From: a virus
Lineage: Duplodnaviria > Heunggongvirae > Uroviricota > Caudoviricetes
Reading direction: 5' to 3' (one strand)
Length of the DNA: 20,685 nt
IMG/VR virus record: IMGVR_UViG_648861009_000006
A program made the position numbers and the translations under genes. This document shows, in pieces, positions 4,452 through 19,326 of the stretch (within the stretch, counting starts at the first letter, position 1; every line of letters starts with the position of its first letter). The notes below the pieces were generated by a model, which was not told the DNA's origin, made no database searches, and worked only from the letters and a program-made list of their open reading frames with translations.

Positions 4452-4750
4452 NNNNNNNNNNNNNNNNNNNNNNNNNNNNNNNNNNNNNNNNNNNNNNNNN
4501 NNNNNNNNNNNNNNNNNNNNNNNNNNNNNNNNNNNNNNNNNNNNNNNNNNNNNNNNNNNNNNNNNNNNNNNNNNNNNNNNNNNNNNNNNNNNNNNNNNNN
4601 NNNNNNNNNNNNNNNNNNNNNNNNNNNNNNNNNNNNNNNNNNNNNNNNNNNNNNNNNNNNNNNNNNNNNNNNNNNNNNNNNNNNNNNNNNNNNNNNNNNN
4701 NNNNNNNNNNNNNNNNNNNNNNNNNNNNNNNNNNNNNNNNNNNNNNNNNN
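4452..4750. other. Run of 299 N (assembly gap)
   Basis: Unbroken N-run flanked by duplicated sequence. Confidence 0.95.
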
Positions 4751-5252: not shown

Positions 5253-5385
5253 TTTTTGGGACTCCTGGCTGATTAAGTATGTCGATAAGGCGTTTCCATC
5301 CGTCACGTAATTTACGGGTGATTCGTTCAAGTAAAGATTCGGAAGGGCAGCCAGCAACAGGCCACCCTGCAATGGCATATTGCAT
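5221..5385 (-). CDS. cIII: CIII (FtsH/HflB inhibitor), 54 aa
   Basis: Hand translation of the minus strand from ATG at 5383-5385 gives [54 protein letters not shown], matching lambda CIII. It is not in the ORF track because it is under 60 aa. Confidence 0.9.
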   Translation of the reverse strand: MQYAIAGWPVAGCPSESLLERITRKLRDGWKRLIDILNQPGVPKNGSNTYGYPD

Positions 5386-5457
5386 GGTGTGCTCCTTATT
5401 TATACATAACGAAAAACGCCTCGAGTGAAGCGTTATTGGTATGCGGTAACGCCGCGC

Positions 5458-7435: not shown

Positions 7436-8335
7436 TTATTTGATTATTTCTTTTATAAAGACTTCTTTCGGTTGGTATTTTTTATCTGATGATTTGAGCT
7501 GGTACGTTATTGTTATATCAGCACGTACAGAAAATTTACCTGCAAAATCTGATGGGTTTACGTTGGGGCCAAGAACCATATTTACTCTTCGATCTATTAA
7601 TCCAGGGATAACAGCAGCCCAACCTTTCTCTGGATTGTCGAGGTCTAATGCACGGATTTCAACATCAACATCAAAATGATCCTGAGTATATGACTCTGGT
7701 GTGAAGACAACTTCAGTTGGGGCTTTTTTAATGGTTTCAGCGGGAATGGTCACTGTACCACCCCCTGTACCTATGACCATCGTAGATCCTTCGTCTGCCC
7801 TAGCTGGGGCAAGCGTCTTAATGGAACTTTTGGCAAGAGTCTTCTTATTGGTTACCGTGCTTTCTATGATTGCTTGAAGACGGTCAGGTGAAATATTAGC
7901 CTCACCGGCACCAATATTGATGATTGTATTGTTATTTGCTTCAAAGTGGGAGGTGTTGCTTGGAGCCATAGCCTTAGTTGCTAGAACTAAGCCATATCCA
8001 ACCAGACCAATAACAACAGCACCAACGAGAGCGTTTCTCATTTTCCCATTTCCGATCTTTGCATGAGCGCCAGCAAGAAACTTGTCCATTTCTTCTTGGC
8101 TACCAAAGAGGAGTTTAATAACAATATCTTCATAAAGGCTTCCTGCTTCTAATCGCGCAACATGCACCGATATATCAAGGATATTAGCCCCTGTCAGTTC
8201 CTGCAAAACACCTTCTGATTGTTTTGCGATGGCCTCCCACCCTTGAAGGGAGGTAATCACATCTTTGATGCTTACAGGTTCTTTAGTTGAATAATATATG
8301 TTTTCGGTAAAGGTTAAAGATAATTCTTGGGACAT
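7436..8335 (-). CDS. Uncharacterised 299-aa single-pass membrane protein in the rexAB-equivalent slot; candidate superinfection-exclusion or abortive-infection protein
   Basis: Long ORF co-oriented with and 129 bp downstream of cI. One strongly hydrophobic segment sits mid-protein (MRNALVGAVVIGLVGYGLVLATKAMAP), preceded by a K/R-rich stretch that suggests N-in topology, with a Gly/Thr-rich C-terminal domain. Codon usage is AT-rich and its own terminator follows. I recognise no homolog. Confidence 0.65.
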   Translation of the reverse strand: MSQELSLTFTENIYYSTKEPVSIKDVITSLQGWEAIAKQSEGVLQELTGANILDISVHVARLEAGSLYEDIVIKLLFGSQEEMDKFLAGAHAKIGNGKMRNALVGAVVIGLVGYGLVLATKAMAPSNTSHFEANNNTIINIGAGEANISPDRLQAIIESTVTNKKTLAKSSIKTLAPARADEGSTMVIGTGGGTVTIPAETIKKAPTEVVFTPESYTQDHFDVDVEIRALDLDNPEKGWAAVIPGLIDRRVNMVLGPNVNPSDFAGKFSVRADITITYQLKSSDKKYQPKEVFIKEIIK

Positions 8336-9916: not shown

Positions 9917-11317
9917 ATGACAAATACAGCAAAAATACTCAACTTCGGCAGAGGTAACTTTGCCGGACAGGAGCGTAATGTGGCAGATCTCGATGATGGT
10001 TACGCCAGACTATCAAATATGCTGCTTGAGGCTTATTCGGGCGCAGATCTGACCAAGCGACAGTTTAAAGTGCTGCTTGCCATTCTGCGTAAAACCTATG
10101 GGTGGAATAAACCAATGGACAGAATCACCGATTCTCAACTTAGCGAGATTACAAAGTTACCTGTCAAACGGTGCAATGAAGCCAAGTTAGAACTCGTCAG
10201 AATGAATATTATCAAGCAGCAAGGCGGCATGTTTGGACCAAACAAAAACATCTCAGAATGGTGCATCCCTCAAAACGAGGGAAAATCCCCTAAAACGAGG
10301 GATAAAACATCCCTCAAATTGGGGGATTGCTATCCCTCAAAACAGGGGGACACAAAAGACACTATTACAAAAGAAAAAAGAAAAGATTATTCGTCCGAGA
10401 ATTCTGGCGAATCCTCTGACCAGCCAGGAAAACGNNNNNNNNNNNNNNNNNNNNNNNNNNNNNNNNNNNNNNNNNNNNNNNNNNNNNNNNNNNNNNNNNN
10501 NNNNNNNNNNNNNNNNNNNNNNNNNNNNNNNNNNNNNNNNNNNNNNNNNNNNNNNNNNNNNNNNNNNNNNNNNNNNNNNNNNNNNNNNNNNNNNNNNNNN
10601 NNNNNNNNNNNNNNNNNNNNNNNNNNNNNNNNNNNNNNNNNNNNNNNNNNNNNNNNNNNNNNNNNNNNNNNNNNNNNNNNNNNNNNNNNNNNNNNNNNNN
10701 NNNNNNNNNNNNNNNNNNNNNNNNNNNNNNNNNNNNNNNNNNNNNNNNNNNNNNNNNNNNNNNNNNNNNNNNNNNNNNNNNNNNNNNNNNNNNNNNNNNN
10801 NNNNNNNNNNNNNNNNNNNNNNNNNNNNNNNNNNNNNNNNNNNNNNNNNNNNNNNNNNNNNNNNNNNNNNNNNNNNNNNNNNNNNNNTTATTCGTCCGAG
10901 AATTCTGGCGAATCCTCTGACCAGCCAGAAAACGATCTTTCTGTGGTTAAACCGGATGCTGCAATTCAGAGCGGCAGTAAGTGGGGAACAGCAGAAGACC
11001 TGACCGCCGCAGAGTGGATGTTTGACATGGTGAAGACCATCGCGCCATCAGCCAGAAAACCGAATTTTGCTGGGTGGGCTAACGATATCCGCCTGATGCG
11101 TGAACGTGACGGACGTAACCACCGCGATATGTGTGTGCTTTTCCGCTGGGCCTGCCAGGACAACTTCTGGTCCGGTAACGTGCTGAGTCCGGCCAAACTC
11201 CGCGACAAGTGGACCCAGCTCGAAATCAACCGTAACAAGCAACAGGCTGGCGTGACAGCCGGAAAACCAAAACTCGACCTGACAAACACTGACTGGATTT
11301 ACGGGGTGGATCTATGA
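9917..11317 (+). CDS. O: Replication initiator O, interrupted by a 453-N gap with about 45 bp duplicated on both sides
   Basis: The N-terminal part MTNTAKILNFGRGNFAGQERNVADLDDGYARLSNMLLEAYSGADLTKRQFKVLLAILRKTYGWNKPMDRITDSQLSEITKLPVKRCNEAKLELVRMNIIKQQGGMFGPNKNISEWCIPQNEGKSPKTRDKTSLKL... and the C-terminal part ...ENDLSVVKPDAAIQSGSKWGTAEDLTAAEWMFDMVKTIAPSARKPNFAGWANDIRLMRERDGRNHRDMCVLFRWACQDNFWSGNVLSPAKLRDKWTQLEINRNKQQAGVT... both match lambda O. YSSENSGESSDQP is present on both sides of the gap. Confidence 0.85.
   Translation: MTNTAKILNFGRGNFAGQERNVADLDDGYARLSNMLLEAYSGADLTKRQFKVLLAILRKTYGWNKPMDRITDSQLSEITKLPVKRCNEAKLELVRMNIIKQQGGMFGPNKNISEWCIPQNEGKSPKTRDKTSLKLGDCYPSKQGDTKDTITKEKRKDYSSENSGESSDQPGKXXXXXXXXXXXXXXXXXXXXXXXXXXXXXXXXXXXXXXXXXXXXXXXXXXXXXXXXXXXXXXXXXXXXXXXXXXXXXXXXXXXXXXXXXXXXXXXXXXXXXXXXXXXXXXXXXXXXXXXXXXXXXXXXXXXXXXXXXXXXXXXXXXXXXXXXYSSENSGESSDQPENDLSVVKPDAAIQSGSKWGTAEDLTAAEWMFDMVKTIAPSARKPNFAGWANDIRLMRERDGRNHRDMCVLFRWACQDNFWSGNVLSPAKLRDKWTQLEINRNKQQAGVTAGKPKLDLTNTDWIYGVDL
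10260..10395 (+). repeat. ori-lambda: four iterons (ATCCCTCAAAACGAGGGA-like) plus the adjacent AT-rich region, inside O
   Basis: Four direct repeats: CATCCCTCAAAACGAGGGA, AAATCCCCTAAAACGAGGGA, TAAAACATCCCTCAAATTGGGGGA and TTGCTATCCCTCAAAACAGGGGGA. They are followed by an A-rich tract (ACAAAAGAAAAAAGAAAAGATTAT). Confidence 0.8.
10435..10887. other. Run of 453 N (assembly gap) inside O
   Basis: N-run. The about 45 bp before it (TTATTCGTCCGAGAATTCTGGCGAATCCTCTGACCAGCCAGgAAAACG) is repeated just after it with a 1-bp difference. Confidence 0.95.
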
Positions 11318-13233: not shown

Positions 13234-14202
13234 NNNNNNNNNNNNNNNNNNNNNNNNNNNNNNNNNNNNNNNNNNNNNNNNNNNNNNNNNNNNNNNNNNN
13301 NNNNNNNNNNNNNNNNNNNNNNNNNNNNNNNNNNNNNNNNNNNNNNNNNNNNNNNNNNNNNNNNNNNNNNNNNNNNNNNNNNNNNNNNNNNNNNNNNNNN
13401 NNNNNNNNNNNNNNNNNNNNNNNNNNNNNNNNNNNNNNNNNNNNNNNNNNNNNNNNNNNNNNNNNNNNNNNNNNNNNNNNNNNNNNNNNNNNNNNNNNNN
13501 NNNNNNNNNNNNNNNNNNNNNNNNNNNNNNNNNNNNNNNNNNNNNNNNNNNNNNNNNNNNNNNNNNNNNNNNNNNNNNNNNNNNNNNNNNNNNNNNNNNN
13601 NNNNNNNNNNNNNNNNNNNNNNNNNNNNNNNNNNNNNNNNNNNNNNNNNNNNNNNNNNNNNNNNNNNNNNNNNNNNNNNNNNNNNNNNNNNNNNNNNNNN
13701 NNNNNNNNNNNNNNNNNNNNNNNNNNNNNNNNNNNNNNNNNNNNNNNNNNNNNNNNNNNNNNNNNNNNNNNNNNNNNNNNNNNNNNNNNNNNNNNNNNNN
13801 NNNNNNNNNNNNNNNNNNNNNNNNNNNNNNNNNNNNNNNNNNNNNNNNNNNNNNNNNNNNNNNNNNNNNNNNNNNNNNNNNNNNNNNNNNNNNNNNNNNN
13901 NNNNNNNNNNNNNNNNNNNNNNNNNNNNNNNNNNNNNNNNNNNNNNNNNNNNNNNNNNNNNNNNNNNNNNNNNNNNNNNNNNNNNNNNNNNNNNNNNNNN
14001 NNNNNNNNNNNNNNNNNNNNNNNNNNNNNNNNNNNNNNNNNNNNNNNNNNNNNNNNNNNNNNNNNNNNNNNNNNNNNNNNNNNNNNNNNNNNNNNNNNNN
14101 NNNNNNNNNNNNNNNNNNNNNNNNNNNNNNNNNNNNNNNNNNNNNNNNNNNNNNNNNNNNNNNNNNNNNNNNNNNNNNNNNNNNNNNNNNNNNNNNNNNN
14201 NN
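13234..14202. other. Run of 969 N (assembly gap) within the nin region
   Basis: N-run with no flanking duplication detected. It probably hides the methyltransferase 3' end and the ninE/ninF/ninG-rusA-type genes normally found before Q. Confidence 0.95.
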
Positions 14203-14262: not shown

Positions 14263-14403
14263 CCGATTACCGAATACTGAAGAATTACGCCAAAACACTG
14301 ACAGGAGCAGGAGTATGAAGTCAGAGATAACAATCAACTAATACTGTTTTGCTGATTTTTGCTTGTAATTGGCGTTCTGGTCTGATTTTTGTGGAGTAAG
14401 TTG

Positions 14404-14781
14404 ATGCGTGATATTCAGATGGTTCTTGAGCGTTGGGGAGCGTGGGCGGCTAATAATCATGAAGATGTGACCTGGTCGTCCATTGCCGCCGGTTTTAAGG
14501 GATTAATTCCTTCAAAAGTAAAATCTCGCCCGCAATGTTGTGACGATGACGCGATGATCATTTGCGGGTGCATGGCCCGTCTGAAAAATAACAACAGCGA
14601 TTTGCATGATTTGTTAGTGGACTATTATGTCGGCGGCATGACTTTTATGGCGCTTGCGCGTAAGCATGGTAGATCTGATTGTTGGATTGGCAGGATGCTC
14701 CAAAAAGCTGAGGGCGTAGTGGAGGGCATGCTGATGGTGTTGGATCTCAGATTGGAGATGGATGCTGATTGTTTGAGATAA
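14404..14781 (+). CDS. Q: Late-gene antiterminator Q (short Q of DLP12/phage-21/82 type, about 125 aa)
   Basis: Translation [34 protein letters not shown]...[16 protein letters not shown]... with GGAG RBS 8 nt upstream of ATG 14404. The listed ORF start at 14389 is a TTG. It is followed by a promoter-like region and a strong terminator. Confidence 0.8.
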
Positions 14782-14794
14782 TTAAAGGAAAAGT

Positions 14795-14850
14795 TGCTGT
14801 CTGGTTATCATTAGACTAATGTTTCAAATGTTAGAATCGCAACGTAGTTA
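14795..14850 (+). promoter_or_regulatory. Putative late promoter pR' / qut region
   Basis: Sigma70-like elements directly after Q, either TTGCTG-17 bp-TAATGT or TTAGAC-15 bp-TAGAAT. The exact hexamers are uncertain. Confidence 0.3.
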
Positions 14851-14880
14851 TGATCATATAACAGCTTGTTCCCTGATTTA

Positions 14881-14909
14881 GCCAGCCTCCCCAAAGGCTG
14901 GTTTTTTTT
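14881..14909 (+). terminator. tR'-like intrinsic terminator (target of Q antitermination)
   Basis: Stem CCAGCC / GGCTGG with loop TCCCCAAA, followed by T8, about 100 bp downstream of Q. Confidence 0.65.
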
Positions 14910-14937
14910 CTAATAAGTATCAATCCGGTTAGGTATT

Positions 14938-15462
14938 TTATTGTTTGACCCATAATAGTTCATTGACATTGAATCCCAATTTTTGAGCAGTACGCACATA
15001 GTCTGCTTTTACATTATCTGGAATAGTTGGAGTCCGTGCCAGAATCCATAGGTATTCTCTGTTCGGACCACTGACAAGAGCATACTTATACTCATCATCC
15101 AGTTTGATTACATTATAGCCACCATAGAAGGGGCCAAAAAACGAAACCTTCAACGCTGCAGTTGTATTATCTCCTGTAAAGTATGCTTTACCTTCGCTCT
15201 CGCTCCATTTGTTTTTCGTTGGGTCATATCCACGATTAAGTACACTAATCCCTCCGTCGTTCCGTTTCCCATAAGTGGCGCTGACCTGTTCCAGACCACG
15301 TTCAAATCGGTTCTCAAGCCGAGCTATTTCATACCATTTTCCGAGGTAGCGGTTGGTGTCAAAATTTGTAATCGGCTGCACACCTTTAGGTGGTGTCGGG
15401 GCCTTACATGCTATCAGAGTGAAAGAGAGTGCAATGCCAGTCAACACAGGCCATAACTTCAT
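14938..15462 (-). CDS. Blc-like bacterial lipocalin, outer-membrane lipoprotein, 174 aa
   Basis: Signal peptide with lipobox (LIAC), then NFDTNRYLGKWYEIARLENRFERGLEQVSATY...GKAYFTG...LKVSFFGPFYGGYNVI...YLWILARTP, closely resembling E. coli Blc. Confidence 0.85.
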   Translation of the reverse strand: MKLWPVLTGIALSFTLIACKAPTPPKGVQPITNFDTNRYLGKWYEIARLENRFERGLEQVSATYGKRNDGGISVLNRGYDPTKNKWSESEGKAYFTGDNTTAALKVSFFGPFYGGYNVIKLDDEYKYALVSGPNREYLWILARTPTIPDNVKADYVRTAQKLGFNVNELLWVKQ

Positions 15463-15653
15463 AATATATCCTGTACTTTTGATAGTTGAGAGTAAGTATT
15501 AAAGATAGATGATTACTACCGATCACCTAAAGAACTTTCCTACTATATTAGGAATAGTCCATAACAAAAAATTGTCAGTGATGACGGCAGAAAGGCAGTT
15601 TAGGTCGTGTACTACACTGTTAACCTGTTAATGAATTAGTCAAGGGGTAGGCA

Positions 15654-16613
15654 ATGATAAAAAAACCTGTCGTTGGGATCAGTGGTTGTTTGGCCGGTTC
15701 TTCTGTCCGTTTTGATGGTGGTCACAAAAGAGCTAGCTTTTTAATGGACAAATTACTGGAATGGGTAACATTCAAACCAGTATGTCCGGAAATGGCTATA
15801 GGGCTTCCAGTTCCGCGTCCTGCTCTACGTCTTGTTCGCTCGGCGCAAGGAAATATACGGATGTGTTTCAGCCACGACCAGAATGAGGATGTTACAGAGA
15901 AAATGACAGAGTTTAGTCGTTCTTATCTTGACAAATTAAAGGATGTATCGGGATTTGTGGTTTGTGCAAAATCTCCTAGCTGTGGTATGGAACGCGTGCG
16001 TGTATATGATGAAAATGGTAATCGTGGTCGTAAAGATGGAGTGGGACTATTTACGAGCACGTTGATGGAAAGGTTTTCCTGGCTACCGGTTGAAGAGGAT
16101 GGGCGACTACATGATCCAGTGCTTCGTGAAAACTTTGTTGAAAGAGTATTTGCTTTACATGAGCTCAATCATCTTTATAAAGCGAAATTATCAAGAAGGG
16201 AATTATTAGCTTTTCATAGCCGTTATAAGCTTCAGTTGTTGGCGCATAGCCAGGCCGGTTATAAAGAGATGGGGCCATTTGTGGCTGCAATACATGAGTG
16301 GGCAGACCTTGAATCATACTTTGAGGTGTATCGTGAGAAGCTGATGGCGATTCTCAGAAAACCTGCATCACGTAAAAATCACACGAATGTGCTGATGCAT
16401 ATACAGGGATATTTTAGTAACTGCTTAAATACACGTCAGCGTAAAGAGTTGAGCGATGTTATACTTAACTATCGAGCTGGCACGCTACCTCTTCTTGCGC
16501 CATTAACTTTGCTGAAGCATTACTTGGCAGAGTATCCTGATGATTATTTGCTTATACAGAATTACTTCCACCCCTATCCTGATGAACTGGCTCTAAGACT
16601 CTTGGTGAACTAG
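15654..16613 (+). CDS. DUF523 (TudS/YbgA-like, Cys-rich) plus DUF1722 fusion protein, 319 aa
   Basis: The N-terminal region has conserved cysteines (ISGCLAGSSVRFDGGHK, FKPVCPEM, VVCAKSPSCGMERV) typical of DUF523 Fe-S proteins (thiouracil desulfidase TudS family). The C-terminal region resembles YbgA/DUF1722. It is divergent from the lipocalin gene. Confidence 0.7.
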   Translation: MIKKPVVGISGCLAGSSVRFDGGHKRASFLMDKLLEWVTFKPVCPEMAIGLPVPRPALRLVRSAQGNIRMCFSHDQNEDVTEKMTEFSRSYLDKLKDVSGFVVCAKSPSCGMERVRVYDENGNRGRKDGVGLFTSTLMERFSWLPVEEDGRLHDPVLRENFVERVFALHELNHLYKAKLSRRELLAFHSRYKLQLLAHSQAGYKEMGPFVAAIHEWADLESYFEVYREKLMAILRKPASRKNHTNVLMHIQGYFSNCLNTRQRKELSDVILNYRAGTLPLLAPLTLLKHYLAEYPDDYLLIQNYFHPYPDELALRLLVN

Positions 16614-16922
16614 GCGTTTGGAATGCACCAACAAGATGATTTTCTCCTTAGAGAATGTTTACAATCGTAAAAACTTCACTATGATATCTATAGTTGTACA
16701 GTTTGTAAAAAAATTCGGTTCATGCTTAAGGTAATGTTAATATGTTAATTAATGATTAATAATCAAGCAAGCCAAAAATAGTTCTGTTTAATCTAGTATT
16801 ACATAAATATTTTAAAGAAAATATCAAAGTTCATGATGATATAATGAGATTTTTCTCATTGAAAATATGGCAATTTTAATATTTCCACCTATACTTACTT
16901 AACTCAAATCTAATTATGTCAG

Positions 16923-17663
16923 GTGGATGGTATGCCATGCATATGTTCTATCATTTTGGTTTTGAACTCGTTTGATATCCGGCTTGGTAAAGAAAAAATC
17001 TCTCTAAAAAAAGGAAGTGTTGTTGCTATAGAATACAATTTAAAAGTTTTCTTTTCTTCAAATAAAGATAATATAATGATCGTGGATATTGAAGAGAAAA
17101 CAGTTAATGACTTCTTTAAAAACAATACACTCTCACCTTTTTCTGTAAGAAGATTTTATTCAGCATACTTGATAGTAAACTGTACAGACTATTCATTGTT
17201 AAAGAACTTGATAGGTTGCTTGAATTGTGATGGTGAAACTACGGCTGTAGTTAAAAATTCAATATTATTTGCATGTCTTGCTATTTTATCCTCGGAAAAA
17301 ATGTTTCAGAGTTTTTTGTTTGGGTGTCTTAATAGTTTAGGAAGCAAAGTTAAGGCTATTATTCACTCGGACATATCTGCAGCATGGAGACTTTGTGATA
17401 TTTCTTCAAGACTATGTCTGAGTGAAAGTTTGTTAAAAAGAAAACTAAAACACGAAGGCTTATCATTTAGCAAATTAATTCTTGAAGAACGAATGGTGAT
17501 GGCTGAAAGGTTATTAAGCTACAATTTCTATCCTGTTGGGAAAGTTGCTAAAATATGTGGTTATGAAAGCGCGTCATATTTTATAAGTGTTTTCAGAAGA
17601 TATTTTGGTGTTCCCCCCCATGAATATTCATCAAGATTTTTTTTAGAAAAAGGCAAGATGTAA
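16923..17663 (+). CDS. AraC/XylS-family transcriptional regulator, 246 aa (AppY/GadX-like prophage regulator type)
   Basis: C-terminal AraC HTH signature (KICGYESASYFISVFRRYFGVPPHEY), very AT-rich codon usage, and a long AT-rich leader of about 300 bp. Confidence 0.8.
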   Translation: MDGMPCICSIILVLNSFDIRLGKEKISLKKGSVVAIEYNLKVFFSSNKDNIMIVDIEEKTVNDFFKNNTLSPFSVRRFYSAYLIVNCTDYSLLKNLIGCLNCDGETTAVVKNSILFACLAILSSEKMFQSFLFGCLNSLGSKVKAIIHSDISAAWRLCDISSRLCLSESLLKRKLKHEGLSFSKLILEERMVMAERLLSYNFYPVGKVAKICGYESASYFISVFRRYFGVPPHEYSSRFFLEKGKM

Positions 17664-17724
17664 CGTGATGCGTTTTGATGATTTTGTAATTTTCATATTT
17701 GATGATTATATGATGCTTTCAGCT

Positions 17725-17755
17725 ACGCCAGAATAATCGCTGGCGTTTTTCTTTT
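17725..17755 (+). terminator. Putative intrinsic terminator downstream of the AraC-family gene
   Basis: Stem ACGCCAG / CTGGCGT with an 8-nt loop, followed by TTTTTCTTTTC. Confidence 0.45.
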
Positions 17756-17830
17756 CTAATGTAACTTCTGTATCTTTCCCTCTTTCATTCCAAACCGTGT
17801 ACACCATCCGTTATTCGCGGAGGTGAGGCT

Positions 17831-18046
17831 ATGAAATCCATGGACAAGTTAACAACGGGCATTGCCTACGGCACCTCTGCAGGCAGTGCTGGCTACTGGT
17901 TTTTACAGTGGCTTGATCAGGTCAGTCCGTCACAGTGGGCGGCGATTGGAGTGCTTGGAAGCCTTGTGTTGGGTTTTCTCACTTATCTGACAAACCTTTA
18001 TTTCAAGATTAAAGAAGATAAGCGTAAGGCTGCGAGAGGTGAATAA
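17831..18046 (+). CDS. S: Phage-21-type pinholin S (dual-start antiholin/holin), 71 aa
   Basis: [71 protein letters not shown] has two TM segments and the dual-start motif M-K-S-M, matching S21/EssD. Confidence 0.9.
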
Positions 18047-18543
18047 TGTCGCCATCATTACGCAAGGCTGTAGCAGCTGCTATTGGTGGTGGGGCTGTTG
18101 CCATAGCGTCTGTGCTCATCACTGGTCCGAGTGGTGACGATGGTCTGGAAGGTGTCAGCTACATACCATATAAAGATATTGTTGGTGTATGGACTGTATG
18201 TCACGGGCATACAGGAAAAGACATCATGCTCGGTAAAACGTATACCAAAGCAGAATGCAAAGCACTCTTGAATAAAGACCTTGCCACTGTCGCCAGACAA
18301 ATTAACCCGTACATCAAAGTCGATATACCGGAAACAACGCGCGGCGCTCTTTACTCATTCGTTTACAACGTGGGTGCTGGCAATTTCAGAACATCGACGC
18401 TTCTTCGCAAAATAAACCAGGGCGATATCAAAGGCGCATGTGATCAGTTACGTCGCTGGACATATGCTGGCGGTAAGCAATGGAAAGGTCTCATGACTCG
18501 TCGTGAGATTGAGCGTGAAATCTGTTTGTGGGGTCAGCAATGA
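18046..18543 (+). CDS. R: SAR endolysin (lysozyme R21/RrrD type), 165 aa
   Basis: N-terminal signal-anchor-release segment ([20 protein letters not shown]) followed by a lysozyme domain; the start overlaps the S stop. Confidence 0.9.
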
Positions 18544-19001
18544 ACAGAGTAACCGCGATTATCTCCGCTCTGGTTATCTGCATCATCGTCTGCCTGTCAT
18601 GGGCTGTTAATCATTACCGTGATAACGCCATTACCTACAAAGCCCAGCGCGACAAAAATGCCAGAGAACTGAAGCTGGCGAACGCGGCAATTACTGACAT
18701 GCAGATGCGTCAGCGTGATGTTGCTGCGCTCGATGCAAAATACACGAAGGAGTTAGCTGATGCGAAAGCTGAAAATGATGCTCTGCGTGATGATGTTGCC
18801 GCTGGTCGTCGTCGGTTGCACATCAAAGCAGTCTGTCAGTCAGTGCGTGAAGCCACCACCGCCTCCGGCGTGGATAATGCAGCCTCCCCCCGACTGGCAG
18901 ACACCGCTGAACGGGATTATTTCACCCTCAGAGAGAGGCTGATCACGATGCAAAAACAACTGGAAGGAACCCAGAAGTATATTAATGAGCAGTGCAGATA
19001 G
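18540..19001 (+). CDS. Rz: Rz i-spanin, 153 aa
   Basis: N-terminal TM segment followed by a coiled-coil-like periplasmic domain; ATG 18540 overlaps the R stop. Confidence 0.85.
18760..18942 (+). CDS. Rz1: Rz1 o-spanin lipoprotein, 60 aa, embedded in Rz in the +1 frame
   Basis: [20 protein letters not shown] lipoprotein signal followed by a proline-rich mature region ([18 protein letters not shown]), wholly inside Rz. Confidence 0.8.
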
Positions 19002-19032: not shown

Positions 19033-19326
19033 TTATTGTGAGCAATAGACACGCGCTTCCAGCGGAGTATAAATGCCTAAAGTAATAAAACCGAGCAATC
19101 CATTTACGAATGTTTGCTGGGTTTCTGTTTTAACAACATTTTCTGCGCCGCCACAAATTTTGGCTGCATCAACAGTTTTCTCCTGTCCAATTCCCGAAAC
19201 GAAGAAGTGATGGGTGATGGTTTCCTTTGGTGTTACTGCTGTCGGTTTGTTTCCAACAGTAAACGTCTGTTGAGCACATCCTGTAATAAGCATTGCCAGA
19301 GCGGCAGAAAACAACATTTTTTTCAT
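19033..19326 (-). CDS. bor: Bor lipoprotein (serum-resistance protein), 97 aa
   Basis: From the internal ATG: MKKMLFSAALAMLITGCAQQTFTVGNKPTAVTPKETITHHFFVSGIGQEKTVDAAKICGGAENVVKTETQQTFVNGLLGFITLGIYTPLEARVYCSQ, matching lambda Bor. Confidence 0.85.
   Translation of the reverse strand: MKKMLFSAALAMLITGCAQQTFTVGNKPTAVTPKETITHHFFVSGIGQEKTVDAAKICGGAENVVKTETQQTFVNGLLGFITLGIYTPLEARVYCSQ

Follow-up and report, generated by a model that had tools for sequence, protein, structure and literature searches.

A Blc-type lipocalin gene in the cargo slot between Q and holin

The window, i.e., the whole 20,685-nucleotide stretch of the caudoviricete record IMGVR_UViG_648861009_000006, contains a Blc-type lipocalin lipoprotein gene (blc) that lies on the opposite strand between the antiterminator gene Q and the holin gene (Table 1). 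Its product matched the NCBIfam model NF007786, "outer membrane lipoprotein Blc", over residues 1-174 with 315.5 bits, against a curated cut-off of 267 bits. Furthermore, a Pfam Lipocalin_2 match (PF08212, E 2.2e-43) and an assignment to PHROG 2809 (E 3.8e-99) were obtained, and the Blc chains in the PDB aligned to the phage protein without gaps (E 2.6e-69). The N terminus, MKLWPVLTGIALSFTLIAC followed by KAP, features a basic n-region, a hydrophobic core and the lipobox LIAC; the signal peptide comprises residues 1-18, and the codon of the lipobox cysteine, Cys19, is found at 15406-15408. Also the lipocalin motifs are kept, with G41-K42-W43 as the G-x-W motif and R143. The original prediction of a complete lipoprotein gene with signal peptide, lipobox and lipocalin motifs was thus borne out, and closer alignment with Blc of E. 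coli K-12 was colinear and gap-free, with an intact ORF rather than a degraded fragment. An AlphaFold2 model calculated from a 30-sequence alignment was poor (pLDDT 60.8), and the fold of phage Blc hence is assigned by homology to the solved Blc structures. Residue +2 after the lipobox cysteine is lysine. Since any residue but aspartate at this position directs sorting to the outer membrane, the established +2 rule would place phage Blc there.

Table 1. Position of blc, of its neighbors and of putative control elements in the window
Feature	Position	Strand	Description
Antiterminator Q, left neighbor of cargo slot	14389..14781	+	Pfam Phage_antitermQ, E 2.5e-51
Candidate late promoter pR'	14794..14822	+	-35 TTGCTG 14794-14799, 17-nt spacer, -10 TAATGT 14817-14822
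Intrinsic terminator read as tR'	14880..14909	+	Strong; 9-bp stem, T8 tail; terminator scan
blc, Blc-type lipocalin lipoprotein gene	14938..15462	-	ATG-started ORF, 174 aa
Divergent blc-rudS intergenic region	15463..15653	.	191 bp, 35% GC
blc Shine-Dalgarno AGGA	15469-15472	-	In spacer
AATACT, aligned with chromosomal CTACACT -10	15495-15500	-	Spacer alignment
Motif AATATAGTAGGAA, common to chromosomal blc-merR spacers	15537-15549	-	Motif scan
Exact CTACACT	15612-15618	+	35 nt upstream of rudS ATG; motif scan
rudS, tRNA 4-thiouridine desulfidase	15654..16613	+	TudS/DUF523 fused to DUF1722; Pfam
AraC-family regulator	16923..17663	+	Pfam HTH_18, HTH_AraC; GC 32%, GC3 26%
Terminator-like hairpin 3' of AraC-like gene	17725..17756	+	Terminator scan; ~85 nt before holin
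Class II holin, right neighbor of cargo slot	17831..18046	+	
Rz1 o-spanin	18760-18942		Third lipoprotein
bor/iss lipoprotein gene	19033..19326	-	PHROG 260 "Bor-like", E 4e-59; RefSeq "Iss"

Farther along the late region, the bor/iss gene was found on the minus strand, in agreement with the claim that blc encodes a second lipoprotein besides bor in the same prophage. The slot occupied by blc is filled differently in related phages: homology to the porin-carrying phage ev243 stops just within the 3' end of Q, at 14763, and returns at 17820, and both in ev243 and in DLP12-type elements a porin gene sits between Q and holin, in ev243 also on the minus strand. Moreover, the composition of the cargo is unlike that of the phage backbone, with a GC3 of 39% in blc, 37% in rudS and 26% in the AraC-like gene, against 52-53% in Q and the holin and lysozyme genes. 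These are two of the features expected of a moron. The gene order Q, blc (opposite strand), rudS, araC, holin was constant in the best 80 IMG/VR loci (80/80 contigs). In phage 1H12, the cassette region of which matches the window at 99.9%, the same rudS gene is designated H3V29_gp66; its product RudS_vir was previously tested and found active on 4-thiouridine (s4U) in tRNA (PMC11417400). Blc, RudS and the AraC-like protein gave no match to PADLOC defence systems. In or near blc nothing was found in Rfam at the gathering threshold; the sole match in the window was the lambda cIII thermoregulator at 5340-5398. The exclusion gene sieB is present in the same prophage.

Lineage of phage Blc

With E. 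coli Blc (b4149; PDB 1QWD, 2ACO, 3MBT; 177 residues against 174), phage Blc shares the Lipocalin_2 domain, the lipoprotein signal peptide, the G-x-W motif with the conserved arginine, and an alignment free of gaps. However, identity amounts to only 60% of the protein over 174 residues and about 68% of the DNA, the two proteins fell into separate clades in 300/300 bootstrap replicates, and E. coli blc is syntenic with ampC and sugE whereas the phage gene adjoins rudS. The close resemblance to chromosomal Blc proposed initially is therefore overstated.

Phage Blc is 72-82% identical to chromosomal relatives linked to merR and rudS, compared with 58-61% for ampC/sugE-linked Blc. Its clade was recovered in 296-300 of 300 bootstrap replicates, and the merR/rudS-linked lineage in 296/300. 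Members of this lineage occur, with 74-82% identity in this set, in Leclercia, Enterobacter (E. nematophilus), Huaxiibacter, Buttiauxella izardii, Raoultella and Cedecea, where blc is divergent from merR and rudS, sometimes with a transthyretin-like gene between these two. In the phage cassette blc and rudS are kept and are still divergent, and colinearity with the chromosomal loci extends to the region upstream of blc. In contrast, the merR-like and transthyretin-like genes and the dyad operator of rudS are missing from the phage, and neither the blc-rudS interval nor the rest of the cassette contains a MerR-family (MlrA-like) homologue. The Huaxiibacter locus (L010) is also devoid of merR. 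Among the best 80 loci in IMG/VR there was no phage copy with merR retained, all of them being the E. coli cassette with at least 96% identity.

Phage blc fails as an orthologue of the ampC-blc-sugE locus on account of its clade and rudS synteny. To judge from this comparison, it is a second Blc paralogue lineage that the E. coli core genome does not contain; in Buttiauxella izardii, both paralogues are present. RudS of the phage is 73% identical to the RudS adjoining the chromosomal blc relatives, and gene order, similarity and the matching low GC3 indicate that rudS was co-acquired with blc. The AraC-like gene, partial or frameshifted in about 12 of the 80 viral contigs and in strain Nord1, is, judging by its composition, a separate acquisition inside the cargo block. 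GC3 in the phage genes (39%) is far below the 57-78% of the merR/rudS-linked chromosomal relatives, and we hence assume that the true donor is not yet sampled.

Prevalence and allelic variation

Of 5,426 complete E. coli genomes, ~1,100 or about one fifth carry phage-type blc, either in a lambdoid prophage or in a remnant of the DLP12 type. The DLP12-type allele differs from blc of the window by 6% in DNA, with 20 synonymous and 5 non-synonymous differences (dN/dS 0.065), and this comparison of alleles shows phage blc to be under strong purifying selection. In agreement, the 174-residue ORF was intact in all of the best 80 viral contigs. Some alleles are altered at otherwise invariant residues (R52W, G56D/S, P133S), and IS1 and IS3 insertions in blc also occur; from this it follows that the gene is dispensable in some lineages. 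The IS3-disrupted allele is present in at most 8 of the 5,426 complete genomes. The 158-residue variant P0009 (668 member sequences), considered as a common degraded form, was rejected, as it corresponds to this rare insertion.

Putative control elements around blc

Downstream of Q, we assigned a candidate pR' by analogy with the pR' promoters of lambda, 82 and 21. A -10-like TAGAAT follows it at 14832-14837, which is where a sigma70 pause element is found in lambdoid pR' promoters. The -35 hexamer and the T, A and T of the -10 are invariant across three alleles, and the candidate scores below the threshold of the consensus scan. Conservation could not serve to locate pR', because phages with 91%-identical Q genes have no non-coding DNA near the cassette in common. 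The hairpin read as tR' has a calculated RNA folding energy of -22.6 kcal/mol (z -3.6), is invariant across the three alleles and ends 28 nt short of the blc stop codon. It is the sole hairpin downstream of blc, where it is without a U-tract in the direction of blc; in reverse, it could act as the 3' hairpin of the blc mRNA. Of the predicted antisense position inside the late operon, the opposite strand and the slot between Q and the lysis genes were confirmed, whereas the operon itself depends on the putative pR'-tR' unit directly 3' of Q. The segment 14764-14937 was found only in phages with the blc cassette, and we hence rejected it as a pR'/StxS-type region of Stx phages. An IpeX-like origin of an RNA from downstream of Q was rejected as well, as IpeX is processed from a porin transcript.

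On the other side of blc, the divergent region shared with the DUF523 gene had been expected at about 190 bp, in good agreement with its actual length. No consensus-grade minus-strand promoter was detected by a consensus scan of this spacer. A sigmaS-type CTACACT -10 precedes the ATG by about 27-35 nt in blc of K-12 and in 6/7 of the chromosomal merR/rudS-linked relatives scanned, the exception being Raoultella (L012) with GACACGT in its place. Although the 100 nt upstream of phage blc are colinear with the chromosomal blc-merR spacers, the aligned position reads AATACT or CATACT in the phage alleles, in contrast to Pblc of K-12. RpoS dependence, raised with the original prediction as a point to check, thus cannot be assumed from the phage sequence, and with neither a consensus promoter nor a conserved sigmaS-type -10, expression of blc in the lysogen is an assumption. 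A spacer ORF of 40 codons (15509-15631), annotated in phage IdasGreatGrand, was rejected as coding because it is frameshifted in the DLP12-type allele.

Discussion

Phage-borne blc is already known; the gene has been annotated and was published as a moron. Infant-gut lambda-like coliphages (Lambda_2E9, 1H12, Lambda_ev203 and others) are 99.9-100% identical in DNA to the window over 14300-18100 and carry the gene, annotated as "Lipocalin Blc", with no sequence difference. The same cassette is found in plaque-forming lambda-like phages, and blc is phage cargo as predicted. Mathieu et al. (2020, PMC6969025) counted blc among the morons of 19 lambdas, more than half of which have it, and already raised lysogenic conversion as a hypothesis, leaving aside the paralogue lineage, the co-capture of rudS and the transcriptional geometry. 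Our analysis adds that phage blc is a second paralogue that E. coli otherwise does not have rather than a duplicate of the host gene, that it probably left a stress locus under merR control together with rudS, the gene of the s4U desulfidase, and that the merR regulator would have been lost on transfer to the phage. Overall this is an incremental refinement and not a discovery; yet, with one in five complete E. coli genomes as carriers, blc is very common accessory envelope biology.

Other morons are comparable in position or product. The porin genes nmpC, lc and ompD (DLP12, PA-2 and ev243-type phages) use the same Q-holin slot, are antisense to late transcription and encode outer-membrane products, but these are unrelated beta-barrel porins, and the non-coding DNA 3' of Q differs. 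Lambda Bor/Iss resembles phage Blc in being a small lipoprotein of the outer membrane with its gene oriented against the late region, here even in the same prophage; its fold and family are unrelated. Furthermore, Bor/Iss has a described serum-resistance phenotype, whereas phage Blc has none described. We also considered orf10 of phiv142-3, which is linked to serum resistance (PMC7724020), as the same locus and rejected it, as the deletion primers do not match the window.

Taken as a whole, including its inferred steps, the reading of the feature as a phage moron that encodes an outer-membrane-anchored Blc-family lipocalin seems to us rather probable. The precursor would be processed by Lgt, LspA and Lnt, and Lys +2 would then allow Lol transport to the inner leaflet of the outer membrane. 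In this leaflet, phage Blc may bind lysophospholipids or fatty acids like Blc and contribute to envelope lipid housekeeping under stress. The spacer might contain a weak or factor-dependent promoter that drives blc in the lysogen, and tR', positioned 28 nt past the blc stop, would shield the gene from the short transcript made constitutively at pR'. Once the prophage is induced, RNA polymerase modified by Q would pass tR' and run antisense through blc, thereby switching it off; the same late read-through would transcribe rudS and the AraC-like gene in sense, toward the lysis genes. Lysogens could thus gain a divergent second Blc and RudS, two functions otherwise missing in E. coli, and an envelope-directed lysogenic conversion via phage Blc, as originally suggested, is plausible.

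Tentatively, this explanation might be extended rather than replaced by the idea, which we hold to be unlikely, that blc and rudS form a portable module against near-UV, blue-light or photo-oxidative damage. RudS would clear tRNA of s4U, which is sensitive to UVA, and photo-oxidised lipids or lyso-lipids in the envelope would be bound or buffered by the lipocalin; E. coli lysogens would thereby survive better outside the gut. The chromosomal blc relatives adjoin merR-family regulators and rudS, and at the chromosomal rudS there is a dyad operator, ACTTGGACAAA-N8-TTTGTGTAAGT. The blc gene of Cedecea has merR as its neighbor, and after merR come genes for SnoaL, a short-chain dehydrogenase, an FAD oxidoreductase and DUF1365, then for a cyclopropane/furan fatty-acid synthase-like protein and DUF2878; the equivalent gene set of Pseudomonas is light-induced under LitR-type MerR regulators (PMC9758184). 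Light-responsive operons are reported to contain rudS genes, and the RudS_vir enzyme of phage 1H12 acts on s4U in tRNA (PMC11417400). Chryseobacterium lacus has a light-induced lipocalin gene (PMC7064467). This evidence, however, consists of gene neighborhood and analogy, none of it being light regulation at the Enterobacteriaceae locus, and E. coli is mainly a gut organism. Moreover, the phage copy has neither the MerR-like regulator nor the dyad operator, so that the phage would have lost or rewired whatever light control there was. By analogy with these loci, blc-rudS could be a piece of an enterobacterial locus for light/near-UV stress that phages have mobilised. The pair would have lost its MerR-type light regulator and been rewired, and in E. 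coli lysogens both genes would jointly limit UVA or photo-oxidative damage to tRNA and envelope lipids; in this full form we find the proposal doubtful. If the light-stress reading were true, the prophage would provide environmental-survival conversion and not virulence conversion. For the rewiring, reference is made to the exact sigmaS-type CTACACT upstream of rudS.

It is improbable that blc is a neutral passenger persisting only because the cassette is young. Disrupted alleles and changes at invariant residues do occur, the adjoining AraC-like gene is often truncated, and a strong promoter was not recognisable, all of which would fit a passenger. Nevertheless, the low dN/dS across alleles 6% apart is at odds with neutrality, and so is the intactness of the ORF throughout the best 80 viral contigs and also in almost all ~1,100 carrier genomes, with the cassette kept in functional phages as well as in the old defective DLP12-type prophage.

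Several phage-encoded outer-membrane lipoproteins block receptors. One might thus expect a lipoprotein made by the prophage to serve the phage itself in superinfection exclusion or receptor masking, like Llp of T5 or Cor of phi80 and N15, in particular as this prophage already invests in exclusion via sieB. We consider this very improbable: phage Blc has about 80% identity with chromosomal lipocalins of the housekeeping type and 71 invariant positions in common with them, purifying selection is strong with no sign of neofunctionalisation, and the protein showed neither a PADLOC match nor similarity to Llp or Cor. Finally, a copy of E. coli's own chromosomal blc, for which only the family, length and architecture in common with K-12 Blc would speak, is refuted by protein and DNA identity, clade and rudS synteny, and also by GC3, which is 53% in K-12 blc and 39% in phage blc.

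Identity of the phage lipocalin

Our analyses confirmed, far beyond chance, that the gene lying between antiterminator Q and the holin codes for a Blc-type lipoprotein. Its product matched Pfam Lipocalin_2 (E 2.2e-43), agreed end to end with the NCBIfam model 'outer membrane lipoprotein Blc' (315.5 bits, cut-off 267) and aligned gap-free to crystallised E. coli Blc (3MBT, 1QWD, 2ACO; E about 1e-68). In PHROG, the protein family is phrog_2809. The N-terminus MKLWPVLTGIALSFTLIAC/KA is a standard lipoprotein signal peptide with the lipobox LIAC and Lys at position +2, which by the established +2 rule predicts outer-membrane sorting. By homology, phage Blc most likely binds lysophospholipids or fatty acids as a lipocalin anchored in the outer membrane. 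It would then most likely aid envelope lipid maintenance in the lysogen, as a second, divergent Blc for E. coli.

The observation in the original prediction was correct: the complete gene, the divergent region shared with a DUF523 gene, the orientation opposite to both Q and the holin, and a second lipoprotein gene in the prophage, bor/iss, were all found. The predicted coordinates, 14938-15653, take in precisely the ORF and the spacer. Its interpretation was partly right. The window reads as a lambdoid prophage integrated adjoining icd, extending from the integrase to past the lysis genes, on the basis of strain 2017C-4173W12, with which it is 100% identical over the cassette region 14300-18100. 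Judged against the fetched locus L001, the last N-masked run takes out the genes, e.g. ninE and rusA, that separate the adenine methyltransferase gene from Q in the nin region. The AraC-like gene shares the cargo block with blc and rudS; its product is distantly YdeO/GadX-like, with NCBIfam scores far below cut-off.

Features of the prophage window and of the blc cassette
Feature	Coordinates	Strand	Remarks
Integrase	1-1143
N-masked runs	4452-4750, 10435-10887, 13234-14202
cIII thermoregulator element	5340-5398	-	Rfam Lambda_thermo, 88.5 bits; an ordinary lambda feature
299-aa ORF, 'hypothetical protein'	7436-8335	-	between sieB-like exclusion gene and cI-type repressor
Antiterminator Q	14389-14781	+
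Candidate pR'-tR' unit	14794-14909	+
TTGCTG-17-TAATGT	14794-14822
-10-like TAGAAT	14832-14837
Intrinsic terminator	14880-14909		9-bp stem, T8 tail
blc-type lipocalin ORF	14938-15462	-	174 codons, ATG start
Divergent spacer	15463-15653		191 bp
Shine-Dalgarno AGGA of blc	15469-15472	-
AATATA(C/G)TA(C/G)GAA	15537-15549	-	retained chromosomal motif
Site of the near-palindrome GTGTAcTACAC	15608-15620	+	also L002 6672-6683
CTACACT	15612-15618	+	35 nt upstream of rudS ATG
rudS, DUF523+DUF1722	15654-16613	+
AraC-family regulator gene	16923-17663	+	very low GC, 32%
Hairpin before holin	17725-17746		
Holin	17831-18046	+
bor/iss lipoprotein gene	19033-19326	-

Two Blc lineages and the origin of the cassette

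Mapping of reference proteins onto fetched loci showed that Enterobacteriaceae carry two Blc lineages. One is linked to ampC/sugE, with a (ampC)-blc-sugE locus in K-12, Salmonella, Citrobacter, Atlantibacter and Buttiauxella, and its proteins share 58-61% identity with phage Blc. In the other, merR/rudS-linked lineage, blc is divergent from a MerR/MlrA-like regulator gene. Behind this regulator come either two genes, one transthyretin-like and one DUF523+DUF1722, or, in Cedecea, a cluster for SnoaL, a short-chain dehydrogenase, an FAD oxidoreductase, DUF1365, a CFA-synthase-like protein and DUF2878. Both lineages occur together in Buttiauxella izardii (L011 and L015). Outside E. coli prophages, the nearest homologues were found at 72-82% identity in Leclercia, Enterobacter nematophilus, Huaxiibacter, Buttiauxella, Raoultella, Kosakonia, Cedecea and metagenome contigs. 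Neighbour-joining trees placed the phage alleles inside the merR/rudS-linked lineage; the split from the ampC/sugE clade appeared in 300/300 bootstrap replicates and the merR/rudS clade including phage in 296/300. The gene had been described as closely resembling chromosomal Blc, which did not hold at 60% protein identity to K-12 Blc and about 68% DNA identity (central part only). This distance and the separate clade refute a copy of the host gene.

The phage rudS product is 73% identical to that of the DUF523+DUF1722 gene of the chromosomal loci, and the divergent orientation is kept. GC3 is 39% in blc and 37% in rudS, compared with 52-53% in flanking phage genes, 26% in the AraC-like gene and 57-78% in all sampled chromosomal relatives. 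The simplest reading would be that blc and rudS were jointly taken up from some unsampled relative, lower in GC, of the merR/rudS loci; the merR-like and transthyretin-like genes would have dropped out or never have been there. Versions without merR do exist, as in Huaxiibacter.

The DUF523+DUF1722 gene is RudS, a tRNA 4-thiouridine (s4U) desulfidase. In the lambda-like phage 1H12, whose cassette region is 99.9% identical to the window, the corresponding gene H3V29_gp66 was synthesised and tested as 'RudS_vir'; it reduced tRNA s4U, though to a smaller extent than other RudS enzymes did (Jamontas et al. 2024, PMC11417400). The same work reports that E. coli is without its own RudS; the prophage therefore supplies a tRNA de-modification activity that is missing in the host. 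RudS genes typically lie in light-responsive operons under MerR/LitR regulators (PMC11417400). We may speculate that blc and rudS are the two remaining genes of a light/near-UV stress locus. The Cedecea gene set beside blc matches a LitR-controlled, light-induced Pseudomonas cluster (PMC9758184), and a lipocalin gene is light-induced in a Chryseobacterium species (PMC7064467). This proposal is more specific but less certain than the envelope role, and we consider it doubtful.

Candidate promoter motifs in the divergent spacer

The 100 nt upstream of phage blc are colinear with chromosomal blc-merR spacers (alignment A1 of blc upstream regions). K-12 blc, a textbook RpoS-dependent lipoprotein gene, has a CTACACT element, the classic sigmaS-type -10, 27 nt before its ATG. 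CTACACT also occurs in the merR/rudS-linked chromosomal relatives examined, except in Raoultella (L012), which has GACACGT. At the aligned position, phage alleles read AATACT or CATACT, and a consensus scan of the spacer found no minus-strand promoter. RpoS dependence as known from K-12 is therefore not simply transferable to phage blc.

On the rudS side, the exact CTACACT sits in a near-palindrome. The DLP12-type allele, the 94% allele of two strains with defective prophages, has the 10-mer TGCACTACAC at this site, which is the same as the chromosomal blc promoter core. From both sites, a chromosomal blc-type -10 appears to lie before rudS in the phage, where it may be a promoter or a regulator site. 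Chromosomal rudS is preceded by the conserved dyad ACTTGGACAAA-N8-TTTGTGTAAGT, overlapping a -35/-10-like pair (L006 about 4550-4600; L008-L012), which probably is the operator of the adjacent MerR/MlrA-like regulator. A motif scan upstream of phage rudS found this dyad absent. Together, the positions of CTACACT and the missing dyad point to rewired regulation of both blc and rudS.

Prevalence and selection

Phage blc is already annotated and published. Eleven sequenced lambda-like phage records, Lambda_2E9, 1H12 and Lambda_ev203 among them, match the 3.8-kb Q-to-holin segment at 99.9-100% identity and name the gene 'Lipocalin Blc'; these phages were described by Mathieu et al. 2020 (PMC6969025). 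Our additions to this record are incremental: the second Blc paralogue lineage, the co-capture with rudS, the absence of merR from the phage copy and, as a further proposal, an antisense geometry insulated by tR'. Of 5,426 complete E. coli genomes, each record being scored by its best place, 110 carry this allele at 99% identity or more and 18 at 95-99%; another 1,000 have an allele at 90-95%. Carrier genomes hold both phage-type and host blc (two places per record). In the two strains examined, Nord1 and S1bESBLb, the 94% allele is flanked by Q and essD in a defective prophage of DLP12 type. IMG/VR contains at least 80 viral contigs with blc at 96% identity or more. A 2.1-kb contig binned 'Candidatus Nanosynbacter' (JARKOR010000135.1, L007) carries E. 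coli prophage Q and blc at 97-98% identity; mis-binning of an E. coli contig is almost certain.

Compared with the DLP12-type allele, blc differs by 20 synonymous and 5 non-synonymous changes (dN/dS 0.065); for rudS, dN/dS is 0.11. The 174-codon ORF was intact and gene order identical in 80/80 IMG/VR copies. The AraC-like gene was partial in about 12 of the 80 contigs and frameshifted in Nord1. The shortened 158-aa variant P0009, seemingly frequent in the protein database (668 member sequences), was rejected as a common form, being an IS3 insertion at codon 146 in at most eight complete genomes (L087 5440-5494). One strain, GN02270 (NZ_CP095510.1, H1/H41), has IS1 inside blc, and a few alleles alter otherwise invariant residues (R52W, G56D/S, P133S). 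Hence blc is generally selected but dispensable in some lineages. Strong purifying selection and 80% identity to housekeeping-type proteins of chromosomes make a lipoprotein for receptor masking or exclusion unlikely, and a neutral passenger is unlikely in view of dN/dS and ORF integrity. Like the refuted host-gene copy, both are less likely alternatives.

Proposed antisense geometry downstream of Q

A strong intrinsic terminator about 100 nt past the Q stop codon, ending 28 nt before that of blc, is invariant in three alleles. The elements upstream of it form a candidate pR' with a sigma70-dependent pause site, in analogy to the lambdoid pR' layout. A short RNA, about 80 nt long and ending at tR', would come from this unit, resembling lambda 6S RNA and the StxS sRNA of Stx phages. 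In the lysogen, tR' would insulate blc from pR'. After induction, Q-modified polymerase might transcribe antisense through blc and continue in sense via rudS and the AraC-like gene, past the hairpin and into the holin. In a comparison with the related phage ev243, whose Q gene shares 91% DNA identity with that of the window, no conserved non-coding DNA flanked the cassette on either side: homology is lost at 14763 and returns at 17820. The stretch 14764-14937 is confined to phages with the blc cassette, and pR' thus lacks confirmation by conservation. In the slot where the window carries blc, related phages such as ev243 have a porin gene, which in ev243 is also on the opposite strand; antisense orientation is therefore usual for the Q-holin slot. 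Elsewhere in the window, the 299-aa ORF lies between the sieB-like gene and the cI-type repressor, a site at which exclusion or defence cargo is common in lambdoid phages.
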